Source of the DNA: Patescibacteria group bacterium
Lineage (GTDB): Bacteria > Patescibacteriota > Patescibacteriia > 2-01-FULL-39-33
Length of the DNA: 32,000 nt
Direction of reading: 5' to 3'
Assembly (NCBI GenBank): GCA_041662745.1
Contig: JBAZRV010000004.1
Location: 1 to 32,000 of the forward strand
Below, piece by piece: positions 14,496 to 32,000 of the stretch. A program made the position numbers and the translations under genes. Position 1 is the stretch's first letter; every line of letters starts with the position of its first letter. The notes beneath the pieces were generated by a model. That model searched no databases. It was not told where the DNA came from and saw nothing but the letters and a program-made list of their open reading frames with translations.

Positions 14496-16400
14496 CTAAT
14501 TGTTCTGCGATAGCATTGCCTCAGCAAATTCCTTCTTGGCCGCTTCAATTTCCAACAACTGCCGCGGATCGGAAGTAATCAACTGATCTTCAGAATATGA
14601 GGCCACCACTTTAACGGCCACGTGTTTGGCGCCGGCAAAGAAAATACCTTCGCCCACCGCGCTTTCCAACAACAAATATTTTTCTCCTTCAGTCAATAAA
14701 AAGGTCTTTTGCACCAAATCAATGGCCGCCGGAGACTGCTTAAGCAATAATTGAAGGGCGGAATTATTGACAATGGCCTGGCCATAAGGAGAGGTCAAAA
14801 AATCATTAACATCCTGAGTGATGGTCGTAACGCCCAAATAATATTTGCGGCAACGTTTGACCAGAGCAAAAATGAATTTGGCTGAATCTTCGCGCTGCAT
14901 CAGCCACCAAGCTTCATCTACCACTAAAATCCTCTTTTTCATTTCGGAACGGACAATATTCCAAATATAATTGACAATAGTATAGATTGCCAGCGGCTTA
15001 AGCTCATCTTCCAAATCACGGACGGAAAAAACCACCAGCTGATTATTTAATTGGACGTTTGTCGGATGATTAAGCAGGCCGGAAAAAGTGCCTTCAGTAT
15101 ATTTTTTAAGGCGCAAAACAATACTGCTGCCGCCCTCCATACCTTCCAAAATATCCTGAAAATCCTGCATGATAGGCGGTTCCACCGAACGCAAATCAGC
15201 ATCGGGAGTGATGTCTTTCTTGGCATAAGTTTCCAACAATGCGCGATCAATAATGGAATCCTCCTCCGGCGTAACATCGCCGATCATTAATCGCACTAAC
15301 CCCTTAACGGTAATAACGGCATTGCGGATAATATCTGCCGGTTTGGCGTCTTCACCGATAGCCCGAGGCAAGTCAAAGGGATTGATTTTGCCCTCAGAAT
15401 TAAGCGAAATATCGATGTAAGTGCCGCCAACGGCTTCACACAGGTGATTATACTCCCGTTCCGGATCAATAATGATCACATCGGTTCCAAACATCATGCT
15501 GCGCAAAACTTCCAATTTGATCGTATATGACTTGCCGGCGCCGGAAGTGGCAAACACCACGGAATTGGCATTCTGCAAGGAGAAACGATCAAACAGGATT
15601 AAACTGTTATTGTGGCGGTTAATGCCATACAAGATGCCGTGATCGGAAGTCAAATCCGAGGATACGAACGGAAAAGAAGACGCGGCCGGCGAAGAGTTTA
15701 GATTGATATAGACTTGAAGTTCATCATACGCCATGGGCAAGGTAGAATTAAATCCTTGCTCAGCCTGATAAAACACTCGGCGAGAAAAAATCAGAGTGCC
15801 GCCGAAAAAGTTCTCAATGCGTTCCGAAGTTTTGTCCAATTCCTCCAATGTCTTGGCATATAAAGTCACATACAAAGAAAATTGAAAAAAATGCTCAATA
15901 CCTTGAGTCAGATCATCGCGCAATTTCTCCATATCGCGCAAAGCGGTTTCAGACAAAGGATCGCGGGGCGCTCCCTTTTCCGCCGCGCCGATAATCGTCG
16001 CTTCCAACACGCCGACTTTTTTCTTTAATTGCTTCAAAATGACCGCGGCTTTAACCGGAAAAAAATACATGGCCATGTCCGCCTCAATATCCATATTGAT
16101 AATCGGCGCAAACCAGCCGACGGCGATATAGCGAGGATATTCAAAAACAAAAATCGTCCGAATATAAAGCTCGCCCAACCTGATATGATCGGAATTAACC
16201 TCCAAGGCGGCCGGAGCAATCAAATCCCGGACAGAAACGACGCCGCGCCGATAAATTCTCTCCTCCTCCAACACTTCGCGCGCCGTTTGCAACTCCTTAA
16301 CTTCCGCTTGTTTCTTCTGCTGTTGCGTTGGCGGCGGCGGCGGAGCATAACCGACTGAAGCCGGGGTTGTTTGCTTATTGATATCTTCTGGAGTAAACAT
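14496..16400 (-). CDS. virB4: VirB4/TrsE/TraC-type type IV secretion ATPase (634 aa)
   Basis: Walker A is VFATSGAGKSYT and Walker B is ILVVDEAWWLM. The N-terminal region (ELYIRTIFVFEYPRYIAVGWFAPIINMD) is typical of the VirB4 family. Confidence 0.85.
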   Translation of the reverse strand: MFTPEDINKQTTPASVGYAPPPPPTQQQKKQAEVKELQTAREVLEEERIYRRGVVSVRDLIAPAALEVNSDHIRLGELYIRTIFVFEYPRYIAVGWFAPIINMDIEADMAMYFFPVKAAVILKQLKKKVGVLEATIIGAAEKGAPRDPLSETALRDMEKLRDDLTQGIEHFFQFSLYVTLYAKTLEELDKTSERIENFFGGTLIFSRRVFYQAEQGFNSTLPMAYDELQVYINLNSSPAASSFPFVSSDLTSDHGILYGINRHNNSLILFDRFSLQNANSVVFATSGAGKSYTIKLEVLRSMMFGTDVIIIDPEREYNHLCEAVGGTYIDISLNSEGKINPFDLPRAIGEDAKPADIIRNAVITVKGLVRLMIGDVTPEEDSIIDRALLETYAKKDITPDADLRSVEPPIMQDFQDILEGMEGGSSIVLRLKKYTEGTFSGLLNHPTNVQLNNQLVVFSVRDLEDELKPLAIYTIVNYIWNIVRSEMKKRILVVDEAWWLMQREDSAKFIFALVKRCRKYYLGVTTITQDVNDFLTSPYGQAIVNNSALQLLLKQSPAAIDLVQKTFLLTEGEKYLLLESAVGEGIFFAGAKHVAVKVVASYSEDQLITSDPRQLLEIEAAKKEFAEAMLSQNN

Positions 16401-16404
16401 AAAG

Positions 16405-17088
16405 TTAAACGAAATCCTCGGTTCTTAATTTGTTAACATCGACCAATTTCTCACTGCGGGAAACCGTCGGATTATAAGTATTATAAAAAACCTCAATTAA
16501 CGACTGGGTGTCTAAAACTTGGGCTCGCAAACCGATACTGGCCAAACCCGTTAAAACTTTATCCACGATAGTCAACAGTTCCCGCTGTCTTTGCATGAAT
16601 TGTTTCTGTCCCAAAGATAGGATCTTGGTCGGCGACAGAACATCACCGCCCCTTTGCCAGAAGCTCCTGGTTTTTGAACGGAAGGGTTCATAAGGAACTA
16701 CGACCAAAAAACGCTTTGTCATAATATTTCCCAATTCTACCAATTCGGTGACATATTGCCGATACTCGGCCATTTGCATCTTTAATAAGTCATTGGTCTG
16801 TTTGACCTCGGCGTCTTTCAAAAATTCCAAATACGATTCCAAATCCAATTGCCGTGACTGGATAATGATCTGCAATGGCATATCCAAAGAATTCAAGAAA
16901 CTGACATAACCGGAAATAATGGCGTTCTGTTCATCCTCGGACTTAAGCGCGAAATTAATTGAAGACACCAAAATCACCGATCGCAAAGTGCCGTTTTTCA
17001 TAACAATGGTATCATCCCTGATCTCCGCTATCTGTAAATATTTCTGAGTTGAGGGAGTGGCTTTTGTGGCTTGCCGATTTTTAGCCAT
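16405..17088 (-). CDS. hypothetical protein resembling the N-terminal (pre-ATPase) module of Gram-positive VirB4/TrsE proteins (227 aa)
   Basis: From the ATG at 17088 it reads MAKNRQ...LQIAEIRDDTIVMKNGTLRSVILVSSINFALKSEDEQNAIISGYVSFLNSL. The longest ORF (to 17187) would overlap the upstream gene by 53 nt. Confidence 0.6.
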   Translation of the reverse strand: MAKNRQATKATPSTQKYLQIAEIRDDTIVMKNGTLRSVILVSSINFALKSEDEQNAIISGYVSFLNSLDMPLQIIIQSRQLDLESYLEFLKDAEVKQTNDLLKMQMAEYRQYVTELVELGNIMTKRFLVVVPYEPFRSKTRSFWQRGGDVLSPTKILSLGQKQFMQRQRELLTIVDKVLTGLASIGLRAQVLDTQSLIEVFYNTYNPTVSRSEKLVDVNKLRTEDFV

Positions 17089-17134
17089 AAGATAAAATCT
17101 TCTATTTATGGTCCATCGGTTGACGGACTTATTC

Positions 17135-17584
17135 TTAACTTTGATTATTGATCCCATTCTCCCCTTGGTACACGCCTCCGGTATCAATGACCAAGGCGAT
17201 TTCTGACAAGCGGGACTTGCTGACGGGTTGACGCGCCGCCATTCTAACTGCCGGCTTTTCTTCTTTAGGCTTGGCCAAATCAGCCCTTATTTCATCTAAG
17301 GTAAAAAATTTACGCCAAACCTTGAGTTTAGGATTCTTTAAAGTTTGAAAAAAGTTAAGCAAAAATAAATGAAAGGGTTGGCCGTTTATCTTGGCAAAAG
17401 CGATAATCAGGGTTAGAGCCAAAACCGCCAAGCCGGAAACGGCGAATAAAGAAAAATCAAATATCCTATAAAAAATCACGATGATCAATCCGCCGACAAT
17501 AAGTTCAATGAACTGACGGACGGAAACCGGTCCGATAATCTTATCTTCAACATCCAAAAATTGTGGCACTACCACCTGTTGCAT
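17135..17584 (-). CDS. PrgI-family (VirB3-like) small membrane protein (149 aa)
   Basis: The N-terminus is VPQFLDVEDKIIGPVSVRQFIELIVGG, followed by two hydrophobic helices. This is the characteristic PrgI-family signature, and it sits upstream of VirB4. Confidence 0.6.
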   Translation of the reverse strand: MQQVVVPQFLDVEDKIIGPVSVRQFIELIVGGLIIVIFYRIFDFSLFAVSGLAVLALTLIIAFAKINGQPFHLFLLNFFQTLKNPKLKVWRKFFTLDEIRADLAKPKEEKPAVRMAARQPVSKSRLSEIALVIDTGGVYQGENGINNQS

Positions 17585-17586
17585 AA

Positions 17587-18999
17587 TTAGTAGCGTAAAT
17601 TGCGATTAAGTTCCATAACGGCATGGAATTCGTCAAGCGACAAGGTCGGCTTGCCGGCGGTTAAGCGTTCTTTGATTACCATTTCTATATCTTTGCCCTC
17701 AGCCATGGCCGCTTGCCCCAACAAACGATAAAACTTACTGACTTCATTTTTGTGCCAAGCCGCTATGCCCTCAATTTTCTTGCCAAAATATTCTTTCTCC
17801 AACAAGTCAATTTTTTCTTTAAGCTTGGCTGTTACGACCTTCGGATCGGGAGACAGGCGTCGAAAATCAATCAAGGTCATATTCTCCAACTCCTCAATCG
17901 GTCCCATTAGTTTTTTATTGAACTTTACATCGTCCAAATTCGGTCGGCTGGTCGGTCGTGGCAGAGCCAAATTGCCAGCCAAAGTTTCTTTCGTTGCAAA
18001 CGGCTGAGGTTGCGGCAAAGGCAAATCCTTAACTACCTTAAGTTTAACATCTTGCGCGCTTGGGGGCAATTGTGTTTCTTTTTTTATCGTCTTAGACAGA
18101 GGCGTTAAACCGATTTTTTTCTCTAAAATTTCAGAATCATCGCGCGGTTTGACCATCAAATCATCAGGTATCCGGATTACCGGCAAACCGTCTTCCATTT
18201 CTATGGTCAGGGCGGAACTGTTAGCTTGCGGCTTAGCGGTAACCGTCATGACCGCTTCGTTTTCCCCGTCTTCCGTCAAATCATCCGGTGATTCTCCGGA
18301 GGCGGGCGCGGGACTAACCGGCCCTGCTGGTCCGGCGGCAACCGCTTTAATGATCTTTAACATCCGATCAGCATCGGCTTCCGAAAAATCCATTCCCCCG
18401 ACTTTGCGGCTCTTCATCAAGTTCTCCTTGGTTTCCATTTCGTCTCGAACATCTTTTAGCCGAGCGATAATAATTGAGCCCAAACGCTTAACCATTACCT
18501 CGTCAGCGGCCGGGTAACCGAATGACAAAACAATAGAAGTGGCGGCTTCAGTATAATCAATAGTCCTCGGCGACGCCTTGACTGCTTGAGTGTATTTTTT
18601 AATTTCCTCTTCATCCTCGCGGGAAAAAGTTATAACGGTGGAATTCTTTGGTTTATTTAACGCTTCAGGCTGAAACTTTCTATCAACATCCATTAAAGAA
18701 GGAGCGACTGGGGCCTTCCCGGCCGGCCGGCCGTAATATCCGACTTCATTCACTACCTCCCTAACGCCGTTAGCTACCTGATGCGCCAAAAAATCATTAA
18801 AACCGTAATCGATTTTTAGTTTGTCCGCCAGGACATCGGTCGTCACTTCGCCCAAAAAAATACTGACCACTAAAGACGTGGATTTAATGCCGAATTTTTC
18901 ATCCAAAGCATCCAGCTTATCCAATATCTCGTCCGTGGATAACTTATCCTTGACTGTCGGCGGCAATGATTTAAGTTTATTTAAATATTCTTGAGGCAT
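17587..18999 (-). CDS. hypothetical protein (470 aa) with central Pro-rich linker
   Basis: It lies 2 nt from the downstream gene. It has a low-complexity AAGPAGPVSPAPASGESPDD segment and a conserved-looking C-terminus (DFRRLSPDP...AWHKNEVSKFYRLLGQ...LSLDEFHAVMELNRNLRY). Confidence 0.7.
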   Translation of the reverse strand: MPQEYLNKLKSLPPTVKDKLSTDEILDKLDALDEKFGIKSTSLVVSIFLGEVTTDVLADKLKIDYGFNDFLAHQVANGVREVVNEVGYYGRPAGKAPVAPSLMDVDRKFQPEALNKPKNSTVITFSREDEEEIKKYTQAVKASPRTIDYTEAATSIVLSFGYPAADEVMVKRLGSIIIARLKDVRDEMETKENLMKSRKVGGMDFSEADADRMLKIIKAVAAGPAGPVSPAPASGESPDDLTEDGENEAVMTVTAKPQANSSALTIEMEDGLPVIRIPDDLMVKPRDDSEILEKKIGLTPLSKTIKKETQLPPSAQDVKLKVVKDLPLPQPQPFATKETLAGNLALPRPTSRPNLDDVKFNKKLMGPIEELENMTLIDFRRLSPDPKVVTAKLKEKIDLLEKEYFGKKIEGIAAWHKNEVSKFYRLLGQAAMAEGKDIEMVIKERLTAGKPTLSLDEFHAVMELNRNLRY

Positions 19000-19006
19000 A
19001 ATAATT

Positions 19007-19531
19007 TTAATTTCCTGCTAACTGTTGGCTCTTTAGGTATTCGTCCAACTCCTGCCGGCTAACGCCCAATTCTTCCAACAGCAGACGGCGCTCCAAGCCG
19101 GAAATAGTTGACCAATCATACCTGCTTAACATATCGCTCCGACTATTAACCGATTCAACCGGAGCAGGTATAACCGATACTGCCGAATCATTCTCAATTT
19201 CTCTGGAAGTGTCATTATCCGCAGTTAAAAAATCCTTGGATTGCAACCCCTCAATAAAGGCGTCAATATCGCCAAGATCATCCTGAAAATCCCTAAAACG
19301 ATTTTTGGCTATTTCCAAAGCCAAACGCCGCTTAGTGCCATTACTTTGGATAACTGCCTTTTGTAATGCCAACCAAAATTCATTCAAATCAATATCACCC
19401 CAAATAACTTGGCCGATTAAATCCATAACCGCATAAATCTCAGAATCAGATAACTGAAAAGAGCCAAGCCAAGGATTTAACTGCTTTAACTCGTTAATTG
19501 TGCCCAGTTCATTTACCTGTTGGGTAACCAT
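19007..19531 (-). CDS. hypothetical protein (174 aa)
   Basis: It is tightly packed in the operon, with 3-nt and 7-nt gaps to its neighbours. I recognise no motif. Confidence 0.65.
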   Translation of the reverse strand: MVTQQVNELGTINELKQLNPWLGSFQLSDSEIYAVMDLIGQVIWGDIDLNEFWLALQKAVIQSNGTKRRLALEIAKNRFRDFQDDLGDIDAFIEGLQSKDFLTADNDTSREIENDSAVSVIPAPVESVNSRSDMLSRYDWSTISGLERRLLLEELGVSRQELDEYLKSQQLAGN

Positions 19532-19534
19532 ATT

Positions 19535-22500
19535 TTATATTTCCTCCTCAAAATTTCCACCCTTTTTACCGCCTTTAATCGCCCGGGCCTTTTTGTCCCA
19601 ATCGGTCGGCTTAAATTTCGGACGGTCTTCGTTAATATCCACAAAATAATTCTCATTCTGCTTCAAAAAATCTTCAATCGCATCATTTATTTTCTTTCTT
19701 TCTCCTACCCTACCGCTAACCTGATCGCCTCTCAATTCCAGCTGTCTCTGCATCAACGTATTAATTTCATTTTGCGATGTTGGATCTCTTTTTGCTCGCA
19801 GACTTGCCAAATTTTTCTCTATTTGCTCATCTTCGGATCTTAATTTTTTAGCTTGATCAATCAAATCCTTATATCCGATTTTCACCGGATCATTCTCCGC
19901 TTCGTCAAGAATCCTTTGTTTAACTCCTTTTATCAACTCATTATTATTGCCTCTTGCGCCAATTACCCGCAAAGTATTAACATCCATGCCGCGCGCCACC
20001 GCTTTCTGATCAACGTCTGACAAACTGCCCCACTTGATTTTTTCCGCGTCTTCTGCCTTAAGCGATCCGATAACATTTGATTTATTTTCCGCATTAACTC
20101 GGTCAGAAATACCCTCAAAAGAACCCTTGGACAACACATATTTTTTTATCATTTCCTCGGCATCCCTCAGATTCTTTGATGCTTGGTCAACAGCCTGCTG
20201 AGCGGCGCCCCTATTCTCCTCAGTGGCATCATTTAATCCTTTTCTAGCATCCGCCAATTCAGAGTTCAATCGGCTAAAATCATAAGGATCAACGCTGCTG
20301 CCATTGCCAATAATCGCTTCTTTAAGAGCATTATCAATTTTATCTTTATGCTCCTTACTGCGATCACCGAATTTTTCCTGCAGCTCCTTGGGCGAAGCCA
20401 GATCGCCAAAATCACGCATAAAGTCTGCTGTCATGCCATCAACATGCATATTCTCCAAAACCTTATTGCGATTTTCGCTGAAATATTTACGAGCCTTTTC
20501 TTTTTGTTCCGGATCGCTGCGATCATAGGCTTTGGCCACGTCATATTTCGTTGATAAATATTCTTTACGCGAATCTTCATCATAAATAACCTTACCGCTG
20601 GCATCAGTAATATTATTGCCCTGCGCATCTTTTTTAGCAAAAGACATATGAGAAACTCCAGACCAAATATCCTTCTTGATCTCTGAAGACATGGCCTTGT
20701 CTAATTTAGATAAATCACCGGCACCATGCTTCATTAAGAACTTAGCCAACGTATCGTCAAATCCTCCGGCACTATCTTTTTTACCGCCTAATGCTTCATT
20801 AAGATTAGTTAAGGTGGCTGAATCCATACTGCCCATGATCTTGTTTAAGTCAATCTTATCGGTCTTAAGATCCGACTCCAGTTTTTCAAGATTAATCTTG
20901 CCCTCCTTGGCGTACATGGTATTCATGGCCAAATTGGGATTATATTTTCTCAGATTATCATCAAATTCCTTACCTAATTCTGTTCCGGTCAAAGCGGTGC
21001 GCGCCTGATTAATCAAATCAATATTATTACGCTTTTTACTTTCATCAATTTCATCATCCCTAATTAGACCCTTCTTCATCAAGGTTTGAGTAGCGGCAAT
21101 TTTTTCATATTTAGTACCGCCGGAAGCCAAATTACGCAATTGATTCTCATTCTTCTTATCAATCTTAGCTCCTCCCGCCACCGCCCTGATGCTTTCATTA
21201 AATCTTTTGGTCGTACCCGCTTCCAGAGACGCCATTTTGCCGCCTAAAGCTTCGCGCGCAAAGGGTATATTCTTGCCACCGGCTTGATAAAGTCCAGAAT
21301 ATAACCTTTGTCTAACGCCTAATCTATCGTCAACGGCCGTGCCGATTGCTCCCGGAGCTTTTTTAGCTGCGGTTTTAGCCAAATTAAGGCCGCTGAAACG
21401 TTTGCCCTGCTTAGTCAAAAATTTCATGCCCGCACCGGCCCAGGAACTGCCGGCCGTGCCGAGTTTTTGACCGATAATGAGAGAGCCGACGAGCAAACCG
21501 ATCAGCAAACCGAAGTTAATTATTTTTTCTACCGTACCCATTTTTGACAAGGCAAGAACAGTGGACTCATTACTGGCGCTACTGGCGCTTAGTCCGGCGG
21601 CCGCAGTCCCTTCTTGTTGTAATGCCGCACTGCCGCCGACGCCGGTAGTCTGTAAATCATAAGAAATCGTATCATCAAAACGCCCGTCATTCCCAAGGTC
21701 TTTAAGCGTAGTCAAAGAGACATAAATAAAAAACATCATAGCCGGGCCAACGATCAAATATTTTACCAAATCGCCAAGAACCTGGCCGGTATATTTGCTA
21801 GCGGCCGGAAAGGCCAAGCCAAAAAAATATAAAGGCGATAAGACCACCAAAAACAGCATATAAACTATGCGGTACATCAAAACGGCGGTAATGCAAAAGA
21901 TTACGACCAAAGCGACAAAAGTAAAAATAGTCGCAAACAGCATAGCCGCAACCAAGTTCCAAGTGCTGAACCCGGTGTCAGTCAGCTGGTCAGCTACGCC
22001 GTTCAAAGACATTAAATCAGGCAAACCTAAAGCGTTTAAAATCACGTTATAGCCGGTGCTTTGCGCCAGTGGCGCGGCAAAAGTCAACATCAGAATCTGC
22101 GAGGCGTCAATCATTAAGCCGAAAAACATCTTAGAAAAGTTTATCAGTATCGCCGCCACCAGAATCTTAGGCATCATAGTGCGGAAATCATAATTTTTCT
22201 GATGTAAAATCGTACCGACCGCCGAGACTAAAAGCAAAATAATGAAAAAATTATTACAAACATCCCTGATAACGGTCCAACCGATAGTAACCACTTTGTG
22301 ATTGGTAAAATTATTGAAAGTGGCAACAGCCAGCATGGCTTTAGTAACCAAAATCAAAATCCAACCCAAGCCGTAAGTCAAACCATAAAGTATCCAAGTC
22401 AACATGCGGGCGATGACGTCAGAAAGAGTGGATTGAGCCTCTGTCCTTCTCCCTGCAGTTGCTTGCGTTACAGATTCGCCAGATTCAGGATTAACTAAAT

Positions 22501-22777
22501 TACCATTCTCATCGGCGGGCATAGCCGTATCTTCGCCTTTCCCGGCAGGATTTACTAAATAATATTCGGGCGGATTACCAAACTGCCAGACTTGATATTC
22601 TATGTTTTCACTGTCAGTCAGTCGTATTCTTTTATCTGTTAATTGTCCTCCACTTGTTATATAACTATTAGTATATGCATAAGAATAATTAGCAGAAATG
22701 CCTAAAACTCCGCCACCTACTAAGGCGGCTAACAATAAAGTTACAATTATTCTTTTGTACTTTTGATAAAACATCAC
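19535..22777 (-). CDS. VirB6/TrbL-like polytopic membrane protein with ~600-aa charged C-terminal extension (1080 aa)
   Basis: An N-terminal signal/TM segment is followed by at least six hydrophobic helices in aa ~130-470 (for example LVAAMLFATIFTFVALVVIFCITAVLMYRIVYMLFLVVLSPLYFFGLAF). A K/D/E-rich region follows that looks largely helical. Confidence 0.55.
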   Translation of the reverse strand: MMFYQKYKRIIVTLLLAALVGGGVLGISANYSYAYTNSYITSGGQLTDKRIRLTDSENIEYQVWQFGNPPEYYLVNPAGKGEDTAMPADENGNLVNPESGESVTQATAGRRTEAQSTLSDVIARMLTWILYGLTYGLGWILILVTKAMLAVATFNNFTNHKVVTIGWTVIRDVCNNFFIILLLVSAVGTILHQKNYDFRTMMPKILVAAILINFSKMFFGLMIDASQILMLTFAAPLAQSTGYNVILNALGLPDLMSLNGVADQLTDTGFSTWNLVAAMLFATIFTFVALVVIFCITAVLMYRIVYMLFLVVLSPLYFFGLAFPAASKYTGQVLGDLVKYLIVGPAMMFFIYVSLTTLKDLGNDGRFDDTISYDLQTTGVGGSAALQQEGTAAAGLSASSASNESTVLALSKMGTVEKIINFGLLIGLLVGSLIIGQKLGTAGSSWAGAGMKFLTKQGKRFSGLNLAKTAAKKAPGAIGTAVDDRLGVRQRLYSGLYQAGGKNIPFAREALGGKMASLEAGTTKRFNESIRAVAGGAKIDKKNENQLRNLASGGTKYEKIAATQTLMKKGLIRDDEIDESKKRNNIDLINQARTALTGTELGKEFDDNLRKYNPNLAMNTMYAKEGKINLEKLESDLKTDKIDLNKIMGSMDSATLTNLNEALGGKKDSAGGFDDTLAKFLMKHGAGDLSKLDKAMSSEIKKDIWSGVSHMSFAKKDAQGNNITDASGKVIYDEDSRKEYLSTKYDVAKAYDRSDPEQKEKARKYFSENRNKVLENMHVDGMTADFMRDFGDLASPKELQEKFGDRSKEHKDKIDNALKEAIIGNGSSVDPYDFSRLNSELADARKGLNDATEENRGAAQQAVDQASKNLRDAEEMIKKYVLSKGSFEGISDRVNAENKSNVIGSLKAEDAEKIKWGSLSDVDQKAVARGMDVNTLRVIGARGNNNELIKGVKQRILDEAENDPVKIGYKDLIDQAKKLRSEDEQIEKNLASLRAKRDPTSQNEINTLMQRQLELRGDQVSGRVGERKKINDAIEDFLKQNENYFVDINEDRPKFKPTDWDKKARAIKGGKKGGNFEEEI

Positions 22778-22804: not shown

Positions 22805-25800
22805 TTAGTATCCGCAGTTGCCATAACGGTTGCAGAGACGAAAATTCAAGGACGGCGAAACATTCACCTGGGCCGCCTTATAAGGACGGGACGCATCTTC
22901 TTCGGTATTCAAGAAAGTCGGCGACTGGTCTTCTCCTCCCGCATACAGGGTCACATCGTACAAGCTCGCCTCAATCGGACTGCCGGCTTGCGCTGAATTG
23001 GTTACCACTCTTAAAACCACTCGATCGCCGATTCCCACTTTATCAGCCGGACCATCACAACTTTGATTCTGACAAACCTTAAAATAAACATCGCCGTCCG
23101 CGCCACAGGCATCCAAATAAGCCTTCCAATCGCTCGGATCAGCGCCAAATAATTGTTGCAACCAAGTCGGCTGTGTCTTATAAATATTCAACTTGATCGG
23201 ACTAACCACGGGAATTGACGCGGCATCAGCCGGTTTGACCGCTGATGTTGCCGGACAACTATTTGAACCGGAACCGTAAGAATCCTTAAAACACGGCACT
23301 AAGCGGAAAATGTCGCCGTAACGCAATTGCTTATCACTCTCGGCGTCATTAGGCGCATAAACCAAATCAAGAAAATACTCAATGCTACTGCTAACGGCAT
23401 AGCCGGCAAAAGTGCTGGCATCAGCATTAAAATTAAAATTGCCCTTGCTTTCGCCCCGCTCATCATTGTATTCCCCTTCTTCTCCGGTTCCGGGAGCTCC
23501 GCCGCAACCGCCACCCACCGTGTTTATCGCCATAAACGCCTTCCAGTCATAACTGTCATGGGCCAGCGTAATCAGACTGCCTTGGCCCAAAGGACAATCA
23601 ATATCATCATCCAATGACTTGGTTTCCGGACAAACGCCATCAGCGTAATCAATGGGAGCAACATCGGCCACGACATTGCCACAATCATCCGGACTGTAAT
23701 TATCAGTATTGGGATCAATGGCTTGTTCGCCGATATCGCAATAACCGTCGCCTATCTCTCGACAGCGGCGCCAACCGCCGGTATAAGTGGCGCAACATGT
23801 TTTCTGAGTGGAATCAGTGGGGTCAATATTAAGATTGACCTCGTTTTCCGGCAACCAATAACAAGTGGCCGAGCAACAGGGGTTGCCACTGGAGCATTGT
23901 TGGCCCAAAGCCGAGCTGTAACTGGCCGGTTTGCATTCGGCCAAAGCATCCTGCTGTTCCGCATCATAAGTATCCCGCCTTAAGACAATCAAATCCTTAA
24001 TCGTTATGGAATTAACCGAAGCCCAATTATCCCGTACCGTTAATTTAATCGGCACGTGGAAAGCAGCGGGATTGGAAGTTGATCTTACCGGTTCTTGGCA
24101 AGCGCCTTTGGTCAAGTCGTCATTGTATTCTTCAACTGTTTCCGTGGTGCCATCGCCCAAAGGCAAGATGCCGACTTTTGTCTCGCATTCCCGTAAATTC
24201 TTATTGGCTAAGCTGTCATAGTTATAAAAATGATACAGATTAAAAGCGTTAGAGGAAGTGGGGCGGCTAGCCAGAGACAAGCCGGCGTAAGATGATACGT
24301 TGCCATCGCCCCAATCAATATCATAAGAACGAATAGGCACCTGATCCGGATCAATCTTGGAATTAAAGCTTACTTTAACCGCGCCGATACTGTTAACAAT
24401 AGTGGGGTTGACCTGGGCTAAAGTGAATTCCGGCCTAACCAAGCAGAATGACAAATAAGTATTGGCGGGACGGGAGTTATTGGGACAATACAACGTCGGC
24501 AAACTCCAAACCGAGTTATTAGAGCTGATGGCGCCGGAAATATCAGTATAATGCCCTATCAAGGGATCGCTGGATTTATCCGCCTGCCATTGCCATAAAC
24601 TGTAAGAACGCCCGAATAATTGCAACAAGTCCGGCTTGCTGACGGAGAAATTGTCAACATAGTATAGGGAATTATCTGATTTCTGACCGGCGCGCGCTTG
24701 GTAGGGTGGCGCACTGCCGCCGGGGAATTCATAAAAAATCGGTTGATTACCGCCGGAGTCGGGACGAGTATCCCATTCATTGGGGTATTGGCCGTTTTCC
24801 GGCGCCACCGTAGAGCCGAAAGGTTTGTAATCGGTAGCGTAATTGTAGCCGACGGCCGCATAAATGCGGCGATAAATCAGCTTTTTATCCCTCAAAATGC
24901 CGATTGCTCCGAAATTCCTATCATTGACGCAAAAATATTTATAATTAATCCGACAATCATTTATGGCAATAGAGGGGGTATCTTTGGCAAAACTATGAAC
25001 TTGAAAATAATTATTATCCGCTGATTCTCCGATGGGACGAGAGTTATAAGCAATCTCGCAGTTCAGGGCATTAGCCTGATTAAGATAAGCGGTGCGTTGT
25101 CTTCCCTCCAAGGATATACCTTCAGCGCAATATAATTTGCGCGTCGGATCATCGGGATCGTTGACTCCCTGACCATTATCAATGCCAATAAAATTCTGGC
25201 ATAAATTCAAGGGATAAAAACCTAATAAAGCGCCATCAGCATCATAGAGGCGACGGCTTTCAGCCAAACAATAAGCGGAACTGTAGAAACAGCCATCAGA
25301 AAACAACTCGGCATTGCTTGGCGTAACAATGCCCACACCGGAAGGAATAGCATCTCCGGAAATTGAACTGTCTTTAACGCAATCTTTGCCCAAATAATCC
25401 AAATATTGCGAACCGGACGATAAACGACTGGCCCAAGCTTTGTTCTCATTGCCGGAATTAACCACTTGAACCAACTTGTAGCAATACTCCACCACCTGTT
25501 TGCCGGCAAAATTACCCACAACGGCTATACCGCCCATTTTATCGCCCATGCCGGCCGGCTTATTGAAATCCAAGAACTTGGCAAACCCCAGAACATCTCC
25601 GGTTACTGCGGGATTGGGGTCGGTCAGATCCTTGCCGAACTCCGAATCTTCATCAGTAATAATCCTTAAGCCGAAAGTGGAAATTCCCAAGTCTACACCG
25701 GCCGCCTGGATAAGCATGCCAGCCAAATTGCCCAAAACTCCTCCGGAAGTGTCAAACTTCTTAGCGGTATGCCAAGGCAGTTCAACATGCAAGACAATAT

Positions 25801-28800
25801 TAACCGGAACAAAACTCAATAGCTGTCCGTAACCGGCGACAGCCACCGCCCCCCAACCGCCCCAAGAATCTTCATCAGCCAAGTTAAGCGAATTGGGAGC
25901 AAAAACTATGTCCAGCAAATTGCCCAGACTGCCGAAAATAGAATTGAAAAATTGACTAATGCCTGACCAAGTATTGGTCCAGAAACTGGAAGTTTGTCCT
26001 TCACAATCTTCAGTTGAACCCCTGCAACCTCCATAAAGGTCATTCAAAGATTGATTTTGCTGAGAAATCGTTTGCGCCACTCCGACTGCTCCGGCTGAAG
26101 CGCCGCTGTCAACAAACACTTTGGCGCATTTATTGGTGCCGGGATTAGAGCAGTGGACTGAGTCTTCACAATTCGCGATACCGCCGGTACAAGAACACGG
26201 CTCAGCCGTTGTCTCGCAAAAATAAGTATAATCGCTGATCGGCTTGGCGTACTTTTCGGCTAAGTCTGCAGTAATACAATTATTATTGGAAGAGAAAGCT
26301 TCTGTGGAGTTAACGCAATTGGCAGTATTAACGACGCTCTGACAAGTGCTATTGGCATTGTCTTCCGGATTATCGCACGAGCAAGGCTTTAATCCTCCGC
26401 CAGATGAGTCATTAAGCGTGGCTAAAACGGAATATTCGCAAACCCTGCCACTGGGATTGCTTTGCACCCAGGATTGCACTTCCTCTTGAGCCGGAGTGGT
26501 CACGGAGCTTGTGTCCGAAACGGTAATTAACCCGTTGCCGGCCGGAACATAACAAATAGGCAAAGGAATGATGCCTAACGGTTTGGCGCAAACTAAATTC
26601 TTCCACATGCCGACTGACAGGGCTCCGCCAAACAGGGTGTGACTGGCCGTATCGCCGATAGCGATAAAAATGCCGTCAAATTGGAATTTATAAATAAACG
26701 GATAACGGAAGAGCGGCGACCAAGTCGGACTGATTCTAAACGAGGTAGCTTTGGTTTGTTTGGCATTAGTGTCAAATTTCAACGCCTCCATGCCGGAATC
26801 ATTCACGCCTTCGCCGAACAAGCCGAAATTACTCGTGTATTGCGACACGTCAAGAACCATAGTTCTCTTTTCCAAGCAATAATACAAAGGATAGCGCTCG
26901 CTGTAATAACCGGAAAAATCGCTTAAAGTCTCACCGCGAATGGAATCAACCGGCCACCATTGCAAACACTGCTGATTATTGGCCGGGTCCGGCGTCAAAC
27001 AATAGCCGTATTGGCCATAAAAATAATTATTACCGTCATTATACTTGCAAGCCGGAGCATTCAGGCTGGGATAAACGCGACAAGTGCGATCAACATAGCC
27101 ATTGGCGCTGGATTTAAGCAACGGCTTAAGATTGACGTTATCCCACAAGGTATAACCGCCGAGTTTGGAGTTATCTATGCCTTTGCTGCCGTCGGGATTC
27201 ATATTGAATAAGGCGAGTTGCACTCCGGAAACATTGTCTCCCGTACGGAAATGCACTATTACCTGCCTCCAGGGCAAGCCGGTAGGAATCTGCATTATCT
27301 CGCCTTTGACCCAGTCGCCTTCATAAACCCCGCCATCAACAATGGCTAAGCCGGGACGCGGCTGACTCTTGGAATTAAGAAAGCGCAAACGCAATTCCGC
27401 ATAAGGCAAGCGACCGCCGGAACCCGGACCTTGTAAATCCTTGGTATGAACCCAGGCGGACAAAAAATATTCCTGATTGGGCAGTATATCAACCGACTCG
27501 GAAATAACGCCCCAACCCGAATTAACTTTTAAATAACCTACGCCATCTTTGGCCTTGGCGCCGTCACGGCTGATATTGACATAGCTTGATTGCCAATTCC
27601 TGTAGACGATATCAGGATTGCCGCTGGCGCAATCAGAATTGCTGGCGCAATAATAAACGGCCAAACGCCAGCCCAACGGCTGAGTCGTAGCGCCGAAAGT
27701 CTCTTCAAAATTACCATTAACCACATTAGACGACTGGCCGACTTGCGTCATGGCATCAAAAGAATAATAGCCAACGCGTGAAAAACCGGATTTATTGGCA
27801 TCCAACGAGGGAGAATAGTCATCGTTGCTAACAGCATCATTAGTCAGATAATTATTGCAAATACCGTTATCGCCCAAAGAATTGCAAGCGCTGACCTCCA
27901 AGCAAGAATCCTGATCGCTGAAAAAATACGGAGCTAAAGTGGATGACTGCCCCTCTTCTTTCTTCTCAAAAGTAGAGCAAGTCAGCCAATTGGCGCAGGC
28001 GCGGTTGGGTTGCGATTTCAAAATAACATTAGCGTCTTTGGGTTTGCCTTCAGCGGTCGCGGCTGTCGGCGGAACCGAGCGGGATAAACCGTTAATGCCT
28101 TGCGGATAATTATTATCCCGAGTCAAACGGCTGGAAAAAGCCAACGAGGTGGTGGCGCTATTAATCAGATTGCTGTAATCAAGCTGACTGCGATCATTGA
28201 ATAAAACACAGCCTTTATGATAATCAACTTGACCGTTGCAATCGCCGCCGCTAACCTTGGAATTCAAAATATAAGAAACGCTGGCCAAGCCCACTTTATC
28301 CCTGACTAAATCTATCGGTGATCCGTCTTTGGTCTTGAAAGCCACGCGACAAGTCAATGATTTGGGGTTATCCACGGCTAAATAAAGATAATGGCCAAAA
28401 TTATCGGAGAGATTATTACTTACGTTTTGGACATCGCTGCAAATTATATCGCCGACTTGCAGATTGTCGGACAGGACATACAAAATATTTTTCTTAATAG
28501 ACACATCTGCGCAGACATCCTTGCCCTCACAGCGTTGCGGGATAAGATTGGACGCTAAATTTTCTAATGGATCAATATATTCGCTGCAACCGGATTGTTC
28601 GGCTGAACAGGACCCGACCCAGCCGCTGTAAGCCGGATCAGACGATTCTTGCAGAGTCACTGAGTTGATCGGGCCGAGCGGTTGCAATTTGTCCGTCGCC
28701 GCCTTATAGCTTAAGCCCAGCGTTTGCTGGTAAGTGGTAGGACAAGTCTCGGTGGTGCCGGATTTAACCCATTTATCCAAATTATTGGTATTATCAGCGG

Positions 28801-31800
28801 AAGTAAACTGGCAAACCTTGCCGTGCGGATCCTTGAAGTAAGCCAAGGTGTTATTCCCGACCCACTCTTCGCACCATAAATTTTCGGCTGAGCATAGATC
28901 AGTGGAATAACGATCCGGATCGTTTTTAATATAGATATCCCGATAACCGGTAATCTCATCCCATTTGTCTATCAAAGGCAAACCATAGCGAGTGCAACCC
29001 TTATCATTCTTGGCGCAGGCATATTTATCGTCATTGACCAAATAAACCAAGGTATCAGTTGCCACAAAAATATCATCATGATTAACGCTATTGGCGATAT
29101 TAAACGATTGCGCCTGAGGCGCGCTGGAATTAAAGGTATCAATCAAGGCCTCGCAACCGGCCGCTTCGGGGCGACACAAGGAAGCAAAGGATCTTAAGTA
29201 AGCTGTTTTATTCTTACGATCCGAGTAACCGGCGCAACCCAGCATTTCTCCGACGGAGCAACGTCCGGACTGGGTATCCTGGCAAACACCCTCAGCTTTG
29301 GCCTTGCTGCCGTCAGGATCATCCAATTTATTGTCGCAAGAAAGCGGAGTGAACCAAGAATTTTCTATGGCGTAAACTTGGTTAGTGATTTCCTTAAGAA
29401 TAACATTATCCAAATAAACGATCTGGCCGTTGGGCATGGAAAATTCCAAGTAATTGCCGTCGCCCGGTTCCCAGGTTACGAATAACGGCCCCAGTTCATA
29501 ACGCTTCCAGTCTGCCGTCAACTGCGTCCGCGGACTGATTAGATTTTCTCCGAATAAACGGCTGGCAGAAAAATAATTATTGCCGGCGGCGGCAGAGTTG
29601 TCATTCCAATTAACACCGCTCTTTTCGGCAAATCTGATATTGTCAAAATAATAAGAAGCATTGCCTTTAGCCCAGAATGACAGGGTATAGGCCTTGCCCT
29701 TGTTAATTGTTATCGGATAATGAATGGTGGAATTATCAACCTTATTAGATAAAGAATTACCGCCGGGGAAGGTTGACTCGGAAGAAATGAATAAGCCGTT
29801 TTTGCCGCCATTGGCATCCTCCCATAAATCCAAAGCGGTGCTGCTGGCGGTAAAATTAACCACGCTAATGGCATTTTTGACGTTATTACCCCGGTTGCCG
29901 GTGTAAGCGCGGCAGCCCTGAGCGGCGGCAGGACAAGTTTTTCCCTGTCCGGGGATAGCCATATAAATACATTCACTGCTATCATTCCACCAACCGCTAT
30001 GGCTTTCGCAATTGGCCTTGGCCTCGGTAAACGAGGTTTCGGTCATGGTGCGGCGATACGGGTGGCAATTATCGGAAACGGAAACAGTGCGGGATAATAA
30101 ACGATAATGAATATTGCCGTTTACATCATACAATTCGCGGCAATCCGGGTTGCTAACCATATCATCCTTGGTACAGACGCCAAAATCATAACGATCGCGA
30201 TCCGCACCGCGAGCGCTCGTTGGATCATTGCAAACGGCATTGCCCGAAGCGTTATAAGCCAAATTAACGCAAGGAGCGCTGCCATTGCCAACGCCGGCCG
30301 TTTCTGGGTCGCTGGCGATCTGTGATTTCTTTAAGCTGAACGCCACCAGCTGGTAACCGGTGATATCGGAACCCTCCCAAGTATAATAAGCGCCGTCATC
30401 AACCGATGGTTTCTGGCAGGCCTGGATTTGACTATAATATTCTTTCTGCTCCCCGCCCTGGCCGGCAACGTCAAGATTGGTGAATTCATCGCAACCGGCA
30501 TAACTGGCAGAACAAGTCTTGAGTTTGTTGTCGGCGATGAACTGCCTGAAAGCTTGATTGATAAAACTGGTCTCTTCTTGATTGTATAACTGATAGCCGG
30601 CGCATTCCTTAGGACAAGCATCAAAATCCTGCGCCACACCCGGTATTGACGGGTCACCATTAAGGGGGCGATATAATTCACAACCGACTTCTTGCGGCGT
30701 ACAAACACCGGAATACAGGGCGCAATTGGCATTCTTATTCTTTAAGACGCCAGTTAGCTCCTGTTGATTTTGGGGCCATTGCAAGCCGGCAAGATCCGGA
30801 TAAGCATCATAACAACTAAAGTAACTGGGGGCCTTCTTAAGGTAAGCCACTTGTTCAATCGGCCGGGTTGAAGGATTATAATCGCTATAATTACTGGGAT
30901 AAGTAGCATTAAAAGAAATCGCCTCAACCTTGGCATTATCAATAATCGCCTCCTGGCCGGCCGATCCGGTGGAGAACCACAATTCCAGTTTAGCGGCGTT
31001 ATCCGGCGCCTTAAATTTACAGAAAAACCGACTGGAAGTGGCAAAGGAAGTCGGAGTAAACTTCAAAGCCAATGTTTGCGGGACACTGCCATCCTTGTCT
31101 CTGGCCCAGTCGCAAGTCGCCGAAGAAGTGGCTACCTGCAAAACGGCTCCGGCCTTGGATTTGAATCTCAAAAAAGTCTCAATCGGAACTGCCTGGTCAA
31201 CGGAAGCTTGATAACCGTCAATAGCCAAAAAATAATATTGGCCGGGAGTAACTTGGATTGCCTTATTAACATTAGCGCTATCCAAACCACTTAAATAGCC
31301 GATCTTGGCTCTGGTGTTATCTGCCAAGGTCAGATTGCTCCAATCATATAAAGTGCCGTCAAAGCCGCCGTTAATGACAACATTACCGCCCAAATTTGAT
31401 TTAGTGCGGATGAATTGGCTGCAGCCGTCGCTTAAAGACGAGCAAGTCTGAGCATCACGATCAAAATACATTTCAGTTGCGCCCTCGCGCGAAGAAACAA
31501 GGACTGATACGGCGCCGACGCCGCAAGCAGTACTGATGGGATAAAATTCAAAATCATCAAGATATAAATCGGCGTAAACCCCGGCAGGATTGCGCGCCAC
31601 CAAAATCACCCGTTCATTGTCGCCGGAATTAAAATTCAAATTAGCTTCGCGCCAACCGGAGGAACCGCTGGTCAATTGCAAATTATTCAATAAGGAAGGC
31701 CATAATGAGCTGTCTTGATCAAAAGACGTAAAGTCTTTGCTATCGGCCCGCACTTCCACATTAACATTGCCGTTAATAGACCCTTTATAATAAAATCTAA

Positions 31801-32000
31801 CATTATAATTGGTGTTCTTCTCTACCGGTATAGCCGGCTCGTAACTGATCAGATCGGCCGGAGCATAAAGCGTCTTAATAAAAAGCGCGGCGGCGCCACT
31901 GTGTTTTTCGGTGGTAACGCGAAGATGGCGATTGTTGTTGTCAATAAACGCCAAAGTCCAAGAAGCGGCTTTCCAGCTTTCCTGGCTGTTAAGCAACGCT
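22805..32000 (-). CDS. giant Cys-rich multidomain surface/secreted-type protein, partial (more than 3063 aa; N-terminus beyond window)
   Basis: There is a single uninterrupted frame from the window edge to the stop at 22805. It contains several jelly-roll CBM-like modules (NGGFDG..., VVNGNFEE...LSAWVHTKD, TLSFWAKGN), a PKD-like segment (IDWGDG, ~24300), and 13 copies of a C-x(3-10)-C-x-x-[YFLW] motif. Confidence 0.85.
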   Translation of the reverse strand, partial: ALLNSQESWKAASWTLAFIDNNNRHLRVTTEKHSGAAALFIKTLYAPADLISYEPAIPVEKNTNYNVRFYYKGSINGNVNVEVRADSKDFTSFDQDSSLWPSLLNNLQLTSGSSGWREANLNFNSGDNERVILVARNPAGVYADLYLDDFEFYPISTACGVGAVSVLVSSREGATEMYFDRDAQTCSSLSDGCSQFIRTKSNLGGNVVINGGFDGTLYDWSNLTLADNTRAKIGYLSGLDSANVNKAIQVTPGQYYFLAIDGYQASVDQAVPIETFLRFKSKAGAVLQVATSSATCDWARDKDGSVPQTLALKFTPTSFATSSRFFCKFKAPDNAAKLELWFSTGSAGQEAIIDNAKVEAISFNATYPSNYSDYNPSTRPIEQVAYLKKAPSYFSCYDAYPDLAGLQWPQNQQELTGVLKNKNANCALYSGVCTPQEVGCELYRPLNGDPSIPGVAQDFDACPKECAGYQLYNQEETSFINQAFRQFIADNKLKTCSASYAGCDEFTNLDVAGQGGEQKEYYSQIQACQKPSVDDGAYYTWEGSDITGYQLVAFSLKKSQIASDPETAGVGNGSAPCVNLAYNASGNAVCNDPTSARGADRDRYDFGVCTKDDMVSNPDCRELYDVNGNIHYRLLSRTVSVSDNCHPYRRTMTETSFTEAKANCESHSGWWNDSSECIYMAIPGQGKTCPAAAQGCRAYTGNRGNNVKNAISVVNFTASSTALDLWEDANGGKNGLFISSESTFPGGNSLSNKVDNSTIHYPITINKGKAYTLSFWAKGNASYYFDNIRFAEKSGVNWNDNSAAAGNNYFSASRLFGENLISPRTQLTADWKRYELGPLFVTWEPGDGNYLEFSMPNGQIVYLDNVILKEITNQVYAIENSWFTPLSCDNKLDDPDGSKAKAEGVCQDTQSGRCSVGEMLGCAGYSDRKNKTAYLRSFASLCRPEAAGCEALIDTFNSSAPQAQSFNIANSVNHDDIFVATDTLVYLVNDDKYACAKNDKGCTRYGLPLIDKWDEITGYRDIYIKNDPDRYSTDLCSAENLWCEEWVGNNTLAYFKDPHGKVCQFTSADNTNNLDKWVKSGTTETCPTTYQQTLGLSYKAATDKLQPLGPINSVTLQESSDPAYSGWVGSCSAEQSGCSEYIDPLENLASNLIPQRCEGKDVCADVSIKKNILYVLSDNLQVGDIICSDVQNVSNNLSDNFGHYLYLAVDNPKSLTCRVAFKTKDGSPIDLVRDKVGLASVSYILNSKVSGGDCNGQVDYHKGCVLFNDRSQLDYSNLINSATTSLAFSSRLTRDNNYPQGINGLSRSVPPTAATAEGKPKDANVILKSQPNRACANWLTCSTFEKKEEGQSSTLAPYFFSDQDSCLEVSACNSLGDNGICNNYLTNDAVSNDDYSPSLDANKSGFSRVGYYSFDAMTQVGQSSNVVNGNFEETFGATTQPLGWRLAVYYCASNSDCASGNPDIVYRNWQSSYVNISRDGAKAKDGVGYLKVNSGWGVISESVDILPNQEYFLSAWVHTKDLQGPGSGGRLPYAELRLRFLNSKSQPRPGLAIVDGGVYEGDWVKGEIMQIPTGLPWRQVIVHFRTGDNVSGVQLALFNMNPDGSKGIDNSKLGGYTLWDNVNLKPLLKSSANGYVDRTCRVYPSLNAPACKYNDGNNYFYGQYGYCLTPDPANNQQCLQWWPVDSIRGETLSDFSGYYSERYPLYYCLEKRTMVLDVSQYTSNFGLFGEGVNDSGMEALKFDTNAKQTKATSFRISPTWSPLFRYPFIYKFQFDGIFIAIGDTASHTLFGGALSVGMWKNLVCAKPLGIIPLPICYVPAGNGLITVSDTSSVTTPAQEEVQSWVQSNPSGRVCEYSVLATLNDSSGGGLKPCSCDNPEDNANSTCQSVVNTANCVNSTEAFSSNNNCITADLAEKYAKPISDYTYFCETTAEPCSCTGGIANCEDSVHCSNPGTNKCAKVFVDSGASAGAVGVAQTISQQNQSLNDLYGGCRGSTEDCEGQTSSFWTNTWSGISQFFNSIFGSLGNLLDIVFAPNSLNLADEDSWGGWGAVAVAGYGQLLSFVPVNIVLHVELPWHTAKKFDTSGGVLGNLAGMLIQAAGVDLGISTFGLRIITDEDSEFGKDLTDPNPAVTGDVLGFAKFLDFNKPAGMGDKMGGIAVVGNFAGKQVVEYCYKLVQVVNSGNENKAWASRLSSGSQYLDYLGKDCVKDSSISGDAIPSGVGIVTPSNAELFSDGCFYSSAYCLAESRRLYDADGALLGFYPLNLCQNFIGIDNGQGVNDPDDPTRKLYCAEGISLEGRQRTAYLNQANALNCEIAYNSRPIGESADNNYFQVHSFAKDTPSIAINDCRINYKYFCVNDRNFGAIGILRDKKLIYRRIYAAVGYNYATDYKPFGSTVAPENGQYPNEWDTRPDSGGNQPIFYEFPGGSAPPYQARAGQKSDNSLYYVDNFSVSKPDLLQLFGRSYSLWQWQADKSSDPLIGHYTDISGAISSNNSVWSLPTLYCPNNSRPANTYLSFCLVRPEFTLAQVNPTIVNSIGAVKVSFNSKIDPDQVPIRSYDIDWGDGNVSSYAGLSLASRPTSSNAFNLYHFYNYDSLANKNLRECETKVGILPLGDGTTETVEEYNDDLTKGACQEPVRSTSNPAAFHVPIKLTVRDNWASVNSITIKDLIVLRRDTYDAEQQDALAECKPASYSSALGQQCSSGNPCCSATCYWLPENEVNLNIDPTDSTQKTCCATYTGGWRRCREIGDGYCDIGEQAIDPNTDNYSPDDCGNVVADVAPIDYADGVCPETKSLDDDIDCPLGQGSLITLAHDSYDWKAFMAINTVGGGCGGAPGTGEEGEYNDERGESKGNFNFNADASTFAGYAVSSSIEYFLDLVYAPNDAESDKQLRYGDIFRLVPCFKDSYGSGSNSCPATSAVKPADAASIPVVSPIKLNIYKTQPTWLQQLFGADPSDWKAYLDACGADGDVYFKVCQNQSCDGPADKVGIGDRVVLRVVTNSAQAGSPIEASLYDVTLYAGGEDQSPTFLNTEEDASRPYKAAQVNVSPSLNFRLCNRYGNCGY

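Follow-up and report, generated by a model that had tools for sequence, protein, structure and literature searches.

A giant cysteine-rich protein family encoded beside type IV secretion genes in Patescibacteria

The last 9.2 kb of the stretch analysed here (positions 1 to 32,000 of contig JBAZRV010000004.1 from a Patescibacteria group bacterium, 32,000 nucleotides, hereafter the window) are occupied by a single giant gene on the minus strand, which lies next to a cluster of genes resembling those of type IV secretion systems (T4SS). The frame is open from a TAA stop at 22805–22807 to the window edge and comprises 3,064 sense codons without an internal stop, for which the chance in random sequence is about (61/64)^3064, or roughly 1e-64; the initial annotation, which had described one open reading frame (ORF) of more than 3063 residues filling the window end and running off its edge, was therefore accurate. 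It was also accurate in placing a VirB6-like gene 27 nt away on the same strand, as the next ORF begins with a GTG at 22777, 27 nt past the stop of the giant gene. The full-length product, whose recovery that annotation had proposed, was found in the database as P0001, a protein of 3,856 aa with a signal-peptide-like N-terminus that is encoded on a 137-kb metagenome contig and is 100% identical to the in-window part. Because P0001 is the full-length version of the in-window part, the window lacks the first 792 residues, so that residue i of the window translation corresponds to residue i+792 of P0001, the numbering used below. The 5' end of the gene, coding for the signal peptide and a conserved N-terminal domain (N-domain), lies beyond the window.

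The closest ortholog, P0002 (3,852 aa, 89% identity), is encoded on a 958-kb Patescibacteria contig (locus L001). Codon-by-codon comparison of the two genes gave a synonymous divergence (dS) of about 0.7–1.5 in most segments and a ratio of nonsynonymous to synonymous divergence (dN/dS) of 0.01–0.09 in all 13 segments, those of the variable region and C-terminal extension among them. Strong purifying selection acts over the entire giant gene. A pseudogene or spurious ORF is ruled out by the dN/dS values far below 1 together with the conserved family architecture, and the gene is real and constrained.

The encoded protein carries features typical of exported, disulfide-bonded proteins. The N-terminus of P0001, MVLLGVVFCCLWILYPLNVLA/QV, contains its only strongly hydrophobic 19-residue window (Kyte-Doolittle 2.23), the remaining 19-residue windows all being at or below 1.57, and signal-like N-termini are also present at the start of the homologs. 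P0001 contains 132 Cys residues (3.4%), and about 60 Cys columns are invariant over 15 family members that share only 30–44% identity; the other proteins of the cluster have 0–2 Cys each. The motif C-x5-GC-x2-[YF] occurs ten times in P0001. The Cys residues lie mainly in linkers between jelly-roll modules, with local clusters at P0001 2646–2791 and 3481–3594. A Cys-dense C-terminal third, as originally described, was not borne out, as the thirds of the in-window part contain 3.0%, 3.9% and 3.2% Cys. Genes of the DsbA type are found close by in two related loci. Given the signal-like N-terminus, the 132 Cys residues with about 60 invariant positions, and the absence of any other strongly hydrophobic segment, the giant protein is probably Sec-exported, disulfide-rich and extracellular.

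Within the window, the protein is composed of four jelly-roll modules resembling carbohydrate-binding modules (CBMs), designated U0–U3, which are interspersed with the Cys-rich linkers L1–L3 and followed by variable regions, a conserved region termed PRE, a domain named after its DWGDG motif and a C-terminal extension (Table 1). Pfam CBM_4_9 (PF02018), whose cut-off is 25.9 bits, matches U0 at 31.4 bits in the window part and 29.6 bits in the full protein, and the same residues score 24 bits with Endotoxin_C, for which the cut-off is 21; of the 15 family members, 14 give a CBM_4_9 match, the best at E=5e-16. Comparison of family sub-profiles with hhalign gave 92% for U0–U1 and 94% for both U1–U2 and U1–U3, in addition to the matches of U2 and U3 to U0 listed in Table 1, where the matches involving U1 span only 21–48 columns and U2–U3 alone gives 17.9%. 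We accept U0–U3 as four related modules on the basis of these profile comparisons. The NGxFE opening and the Y-x-[LF]-S-x-W-x-K strand typical of CBM4/CBM9 are present in the modules, and CBM_4_9 is the only domain assignment with database support. The four jelly-roll units placed in the initial annotation hold their positions, the unit at the window edge passing both Pfam models and the units being related by hhalign; the CBM_4_9 scan that it had suggested scores above the gathering threshold. The Gly/hydrophobic-rich stretch that it had pointed out corresponds to GGWGAVAVAGYGQLL, in a region where hydropathy reaches 1.57 over 19 residues and is thus under the usual threshold for a membrane span.

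The linkers are conserved in their own right. L1 has 33 invariant columns, 15 of which are Cys, and PRE has invariant residues that include R2984, P3185, W3201 and C3297, with C2965 nearly invariant. The DWGDG domain, at the C-terminal end of most family members, had been called PKD-like around 24150–24420, and the motif SYDIDWGDG is indeed there (W3355, at about nt 24311–24313), yet sequence support for PKD is lacking. No PKD model (PF00801, PF18911) matched P0001 at E<=1 or any of the 15 members at E<=0.01; among 22 isolated DWGDG domains one matched PKD_4 (E=0.11) and one Big_9 (E=0.0077), and a PDB profile search with the same 22 domains returned no PKD chain and only two chance-level matches (E=1.6 and E=3.3). 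The domain follows the pattern F..VD.DQLP..Y.IDWGDG...YH.Y...V.V.DNWG, which presumably resembles the PKD pattern, and it may be an immunoglobulin-like sandwich.

Searches of the full protein, the 15 members and 54 variable or C-terminal segments against Pfam, NCBIfam and PHROGs returned nothing beyond the CBM-type jelly rolls. The NCBIfam scan of full-length P0001 gave a single chance-level match, to an unrelated kinase model, and no match to the Myxococcus-type Cys-rich repeat, assuming that this model, which we take to be TIGR02232, is in the library. No enzyme, toxin or lectin domain was found by Pfam in the variable region, in the C-terminal extension of this protein or in 52 segments from relatives, and PDB profile searches with the N-domain, L1 and L2 returned no credible relative. 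An intracellular enzyme-type architecture, which the initial annotation had named as grounds for refuting its reading, was not revealed by the scans, in which no enzyme family was matched.

Table 1 Coordinates of the giant gene, the regions of its product and the neighbouring genes in the window
Feature	Coordinates	Strand	Evidence and remarks
Giant gene	22805..32000	-	P0001 residues 793–3856 plus TAA stop; open frame, 100% identity, dN/dS
U0, CBM4/9-like jelly-roll module, optional in family	31526..31978	-	P0001 800–950; Pfam CBM_4_9 and Endotoxin_C above cut-offs; U0-profile match 79/152
U1, CBM-like module, NGGFDG opening	30920..31390	-	P0001 996–1152; 147/152; 23% mean pairwise family identity
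L1, conserved Cys-rich linker domain, repeated C-x5-GC-x2-[YF]	29876..30898	-	P0001 1160–1500; 152/152
U2, CBM-like module	29381..29869	-	P0001 1503–1665; 152/152; hhalign 96.5% to U0, 95 columns
L2, conserved Cys-rich linker region	27731..29380	-	P0001 1666–2215; 152/152; 43 invariant alignment columns
U3, CBM-like module, NGNFEE opening	27116..27730	-	P0001 2216–2420; 145/152; hhalign 95% to U0, 115 columns
L3, short Cys-rich segment	26846..27115	-	P0001 2421–2510; 148/152; most conserved segment, 48% mean identity
Lineage-variable Cys-rich region	25904..26845	-	P0001 2511–2824; few homologs cover it; dN/dS 0.09 (gene maximum); no Pfam domain
Subfamily-specific region, Gly/hydrophobic D-x-WGGWG motif	25496..25903	-	GGWGAVAVAGYGQLL at 25817–25861; profile match 33/152; dN/dS 0.03
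PRE, conserved region preceding terminal domain	24479..25495	-	P0001 2961–3299; 139/152
DWGDG domain (PKD-like segment of the initial annotation)	23996..24478	-	P0001 3300–3460; 143/152; C-terminal end of most family members
C-terminal extension	22808..23995	-	P0001 3461–3856; profile match 4/173 proteins scanned; no Pfam match; dN/dS 0.09
VirB6-like gene, 1,080 aa as ORF listed	19535..22777	-	8 hydrophobic spans in first 440 aa, then ~640 hydrophilic residues
174-aa ORF after VirB6-like gene	19007–19531	-	no family match
470-aa ORF	within 13232..19531	-	no family match
PrgI/VirB3-like	17135–17584	-	Pfam PrgI 30.4 bits, cut-off 27
TrsD/TraC-like	16405–17187	-	NCBIfam TrsD 39.8 bits, under cut-off
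VirB4 ATPase	14496–16400	-	Pfam P-loop_TraG 105 bits
189-aa single-span protein	within 13232..19531	-	one N-terminal hydrophobic span
ComF-like	13232–13891	-	Pfam Pribosyltran and DZR_2

The giant protein belongs to a very large, unannotated family of Patescibacteria. A profile of the N-domain (P0001 ~100–660) was searched against 1.84 billion cluster representatives, clustered at 50% identity, and matched 2,900 proteins at E<=1e-3, of which 1,142 reach E<=1e-30; nearly all of the top 150 are proteins of 2,300–3,900 aa, or fragments, with the domain at residues ~50–700. A word-indexed homolog search with the N-domain alignment returned 5 fragments only, and one with the C-terminal extension retrieved no protein, its own parent included. 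In a scan with one genome per species, 559 loci were found, all homologs coming from Patescibacteria, of which the closest, at 89% identity, is titled Candidatus Buchananbacteria; Falkowbacteria, Uhrbacteria and Parcubacteria are among the other titles. The giant gene looks single-copy, as the best 80 of the 559 loci fall in 80 different assemblies. Loci L008, L009, L011, L015 and many others are titled 'uncultured Gammaproteobacteria bacterium' (TPA_asm metagenome-assembled genomes); these titles look wrong, the locus being of Patescibacteria type. No description of the family or of its position in the cluster was found in the literature covered, which did not take in all journals, and term searches of the main text of the survey of Patescibacteria T4SS (PMC12102498) gave no mention of the giant protein.

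Counted over 152 full-length representatives, all of which contain the N-domain, the order of the parts is fixed: N-domain, U0 (optional), U1, L1, U2, L2, U3, L3, variable insert, PRE and DWGDG domain. With the same module order in all 152, the architecture is machine-like rather than mosaic. Mean pairwise identity is 37–48% in the linkers and N-domain (L3 48%, L1 44%, N-domain 40%) and lowest in the jelly rolls, at 23% for U0 and U1 and 30–31% for U2 and U3. Among the conserved parts the jelly rolls thus vary most, a pattern to be expected of ligand-binding modules mounted on a fixed scaffold, and the alignments suggest a conserved scaffold carrying faster-evolving modules of a binding type.

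The genes that follow the giant gene in the window constitute a T4SS cluster of the MPF-FATA-like type described for Patescibacteria by Quinonero-Coronel et al. (PMC12102498). The VirB4, TrsD, PrgI and VirB6-like genes are adjacent and on the same strand, with the TrsD and TrbL scores under their cut-offs; the VirB6-like ORF matches Pfam TrbL at 19 bits and NCBIfam pLS20_p028 at 20 bits, both under the cut-offs. Across homologs, a conserved block consists of ksgA, a membrane-anchored TSP3-repeat protein, the giant gene and the VirB6-like gene, then PrgI, TrsD and VirB4, and this same order is found in the gene-called homolog loci L001, L002, L004, L005 and L089. The full cluster is present in seven of the nine gene-called homolog loci (L001–L005, L088, L089) at 25–89% identity; in L003 and L088 it is split by unrelated genes, and the giant gene keeps the VirB6-like gene together with the following gene of ~320–340 aa. 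At least 1.5 kb of sequence lies downstream of the giant gene in 57 species loci; a VirB6-like match occurs in 49 of them, on the same strand and 30–3,400 nt past the stop of the giant gene. The linkage of the giant gene to T4SS-like genes is well beyond chance.

The giant gene had been described as heading the operon, which the orthologous loci do not support, since there the giant gene is preceded by a small TSP3-repeat gene and, further upstream, by ksgA. The TSP3 gene lies directly upstream in 56 of 65 loci, and its product may be the tightest partner of the giant protein and is a possible anchor for it. This partner (L001 8918–9964, with equivalents in L002–L005 and L086–L089; outside the window) spans the membrane once and combines two TSP3-type calcium-binding repeats with a Ser/Thr-rich linker and 2–3 copies of the motif IRQ.L..SG......DDEL, and it is also found in loci without a T4SS. 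On the other side of the VirB6-like gene, the next gene encodes 174 aa in the window (19007–19531) and 341 aa in L001 (24721–25746), of which only ~40 C-terminal residues match, perhaps through rearrangement or fast evolution of the region. Genes of the competence type lie on both sides of the T4SS cluster, a ComF-like gene immediately downstream, both in the window and in orthologous loci, and DprA upstream in L001 (2353–3459); a comF gene next to T4SS genes has been noted for class ABY1 (PMC12102498).

We propose, with a probability of roughly 0.45, that the giant protein is a Sec-exported, disulfide-braced, long multi-domain surface structure of a Buchananbacteria-like cell that serves as a host-contact arm working with the adjacent MPF-FATA-like T4SS. 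It is a candidate for host contact because its gene lies nearly always beside type IV secretion genes. The N-terminal signal peptide would carry the protein across the membrane, and about 65 disulfides would stiffen the conserved Cys-rich linkers into a rigid scaffold. The conserved N-domain of ~550 aa is envisaged to hold the protein at the cell by binding the upstream TSP3 protein, the large downstream VirB6-like protein, or both, while the three to four CBM4/9-like jelly rolls and the variable distal parts would bind glycans on the host surface, and glycan binding would in turn position the secretion channel against the host envelope. The initial annotation had suggested a surface adhesin or contact-dependent component delivered by, or working with, the secretion apparatus. 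A probable extracellular character and the T4SS linkage were borne out (signal, Cys content, 49/57 and 7/9 loci), and classical T4SS delivery from the cytoplasm was not, being unlikely for a protein with its own Sec-type signal and dozens of probable disulfides. For a putative adhesive role, the support comes from the CBM-like modules.

Several observations weigh against a host-contact arm. The LP.[TSA][GAN] motif of an LPXTG sortase anchor is absent anywhere in the protein, which ends in ...RLCNRYGNCGY, and P0001 has no membrane anchor, a C-terminal one included. In Pfam, NCBIfam and PHROGs, no match to any known T4SS component or adhesin family was obtained for any stretch of the protein, and CBM4/9 modules usually sit in enzymes, not in adhesins. 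AlphaFold2 predictions of the N-domain from 15 and from 44 sequences had mean pLDDT (predicted local distance difference test) values of 47 and 61, respectively, the latter model being confident only at P0001 ~411–551, and Foldseek comparison of the N-domain model with PDB and viral models gave nothing below E=0.7; the model, in which the N-terminal half is predicted to form long helices and the Cys-rich end short hairpins, is too weak for the fold to be called new. The housekeeping gene ksgA, found upstream in 57 of 65 loci, is as tightly linked to the giant gene as the VirB6-like gene is, so that, in genomes this small, a conserved order of genes is only a weak sign of a common function. Finally, the loci of two distant members (P0031 and P0032; L086 and L087) keep ksgA, the TSP3 gene and the giant gene with no T4SS gene within 10 kb, and the T4SS link is therefore strong, not obligatory. 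A sortase-anchored adhesin was rejected as an identity for lack of the LPXTG motif.

The persistence of the ksgA-TSP3-giant gene block in L086 and L087 is what would be expected of an envelope or surface protein that is independent of the T4SS, for example a fibre on the surface, a structure associated with the S-layer or a general adhesin, held by the TSP3 protein and located near the T4SS through frozen gene order in reduced genomes. The comparably tight linkage of the ksgA, TSP3 and VirB6-like genes, the protein's own Sec-type signal and its lack of homology to any T4SS part also fit such a protein. We nevertheless find it less likely than the host-contact arm, as the giant gene stays beside the VirB6-like gene where the cluster is split from VirB4 (L003, L088), the adjacency holds down to ~25–30% identity, and the short same-strand stop-to-start gap suggests that the giant and VirB6-like genes are co-transcribed. 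Another possibility is a secreted degradative or lytic factor, namely a new carbohydrate-active or cell-wall-attacking enzyme or toxin with CBMs that would target host envelope polymers and a catalytic part in the N-domain or linkers. The CBM_4_9 match is in keeping with this, as such modules normally accompany glycoside hydrolases, and the N-domain contains invariant charged and aromatic residues, e.g. D176, E498 and E601. The lack of any enzyme or toxin family in the 3,856 residues, the 15 homologs and the 54 variable or C-terminal segments, of a PDB relative for the N-domain, L1 or L2, and of a candidate immunity gene downstream, where the next gene is VirB6-like, makes it improbable, even though giant Omnitrophota proteins beside secretion loci have been proposed to degrade cell walls (bioRxiv 10.1101/2023.11.21.568195).

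We give similarly little credence to a Sec-dependent T4SS cargo that, on the model of pertussis toxin and its Ptl system, would fold outside the membrane and then be pushed through the wall or S-layer, or be assembled into a fibre, by a T4SS without a coupling protein. A protein of 3,856 aa with rigid disulfide-rich domains would far exceed in size any known T4SS substrate, and two family members have no T4SS nearby. The Sec-type signal and many Cys residues are nonetheless compatible with such a cargo, and Pfam and NCBIfam scans found no VirD4-like coupling protein at 13232–22777; in Patescibacteria, virB4 seldom has a coupling-protein gene nearby, and the Ptl system is without such a protein (PMC12102498). 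Sequence data alone cannot separate this cargo from the host-contact arm that we prefer. Polymorphic toxins of the CdiA, Rhs or MafB type were rejected as well, as no toxin family is present in the C-terminal extension or the 54 variable segments, and the gene downstream is VirB6-like, with no immunity gene.

Conjugation clusters of Gram-positive bacteria encode surface adhesins. The giant protein can be compared with PrgB and PrgC of pCF10 (MPF-FATA), which are likewise large, Sec-exported surface proteins encoded in a T4SS cluster upstream of VirB6-like (PrgH), VirB3-like (PrgI) and VirB4-like (PrgJ) genes, and presumably establish or stabilise the contact between cells for a T4SS without an outer-membrane complex. 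It differs from them in having no sequence homology or LPXTG motif, in being three times larger and Cys-rich, and in its CBM-like modules. In Patescibacteria, the T4SS clusters have no relaxase, are probably not conjugative and have yielded no adhesin like PrgB (PMC12102498). The Cys-rich proteins of Peribacteria, which belong to the CPR (candidate phyla radiation), are also very large, signal-peptide-bearing proteins of an episymbiont with a proposed role in attachment (Anantharaman et al. 2016, PMC4736985). They are set apart by their description, which is a general one giving weak similarity to Myxococcus Cys-rich repeats and reporting no fixed architecture or T4SS linkage. The giant proteins of Omnitrophota (West-Roberts et al. 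2023, bioRxiv 10.1101/2023.11.21.568195) share secretion, an ultra-small host-dependent cell and a conserved position beside a multi-subunit secretion machine, but belong to another phylum, are much larger, neighbour a type II secretion system or type IV pilus-like machine and have domains indicative of cell-wall degradation, whereas no enzymatic domain was found in the giant protein. With CBM4/CBM9 (PF02018) the likeness consists of one module over the Pfam threshold and three others related to it; unlike in the usual CBM4/CBM9 setting, the modules are embedded between new Cys-rich domains with no recognisable glycoside hydrolase attached. Pertussis toxin resembles the giant protein in being Sec-exported and disulfide-bonded and in its association with a T4SS cluster without a coupling protein, but the two are not homologous, their sizes are an order of magnitude apart, the present cell is monoderm, and export of the giant protein by the T4SS would be purely hypothetical.

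Another part of the window, positions 1–13172, looks like an integrated phage-like element between tRNA-Ser genes at 188–277 and 13078–13172, which encodes two DNA methylases, small and large terminase-like proteins, a diversity-generating retroelement (DGR) and a large serine recombinase. The DGR signature extends over 6607–9662, with a template repeat at 8836–8950, variable repeats at 7254–7368 (ORF 6607–7380) and 8337–8451 (ORF 7684–8463), and a bAvd-like ORF at 9015–9662; mismatches between the repeats fall nearly all at template adenines (19/20 and 16/16), and a reverse transcriptase was not found in the window. As a target of this DGR the giant gene was rejected, since a repeat search found no copy inside 22805–32000. 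Perfect inverted repeats of 101 nt (9775–9875 and 11388–11488) flank an unassigned ORF at 9884–11020, and a second perfect pair of 87 nt (11486–11572 and 12997–13083) is located at both ends of the serine recombinase ORF at 11500–13137 and touches the tRNA-Ser at 13078–13172. The two pairs may represent invertible segments, or may have arisen as an artefact of assembly.

Patescibacteria account for a large part of the diversity of bacteria, and they live in attachment to other cells. Their T4SS are widespread and were essential in the one species tested, and the function of these systems has been called completely unknown (PMC11665869, PMC12102498). By its predicted function, the giant protein would fall among T4SS-associated surface proteins and CPR giant surface proteins. 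A bolder extension, which we regard as unlikely, is that the giant protein and its TSP3 partner form the missing extracellular arm of the Patescibacteria T4SS, a new class of component in which a new N-terminal fold would dock on the enlarged VirB6-like protein and bridge epibiont to host, with host range set by the fast-evolving jelly rolls. Should the T4SS link prove wrong, the family would still comprise major surface proteins that have not been described, in which three or more conserved regions lack a counterpart in Pfam or among PDB sequences. If the giant protein is the host-contact part of the machine, it would offer a concrete target for cryo-tomography, proteomics, prediction of host range from the variable modules, and genetics in cultivable relatives.

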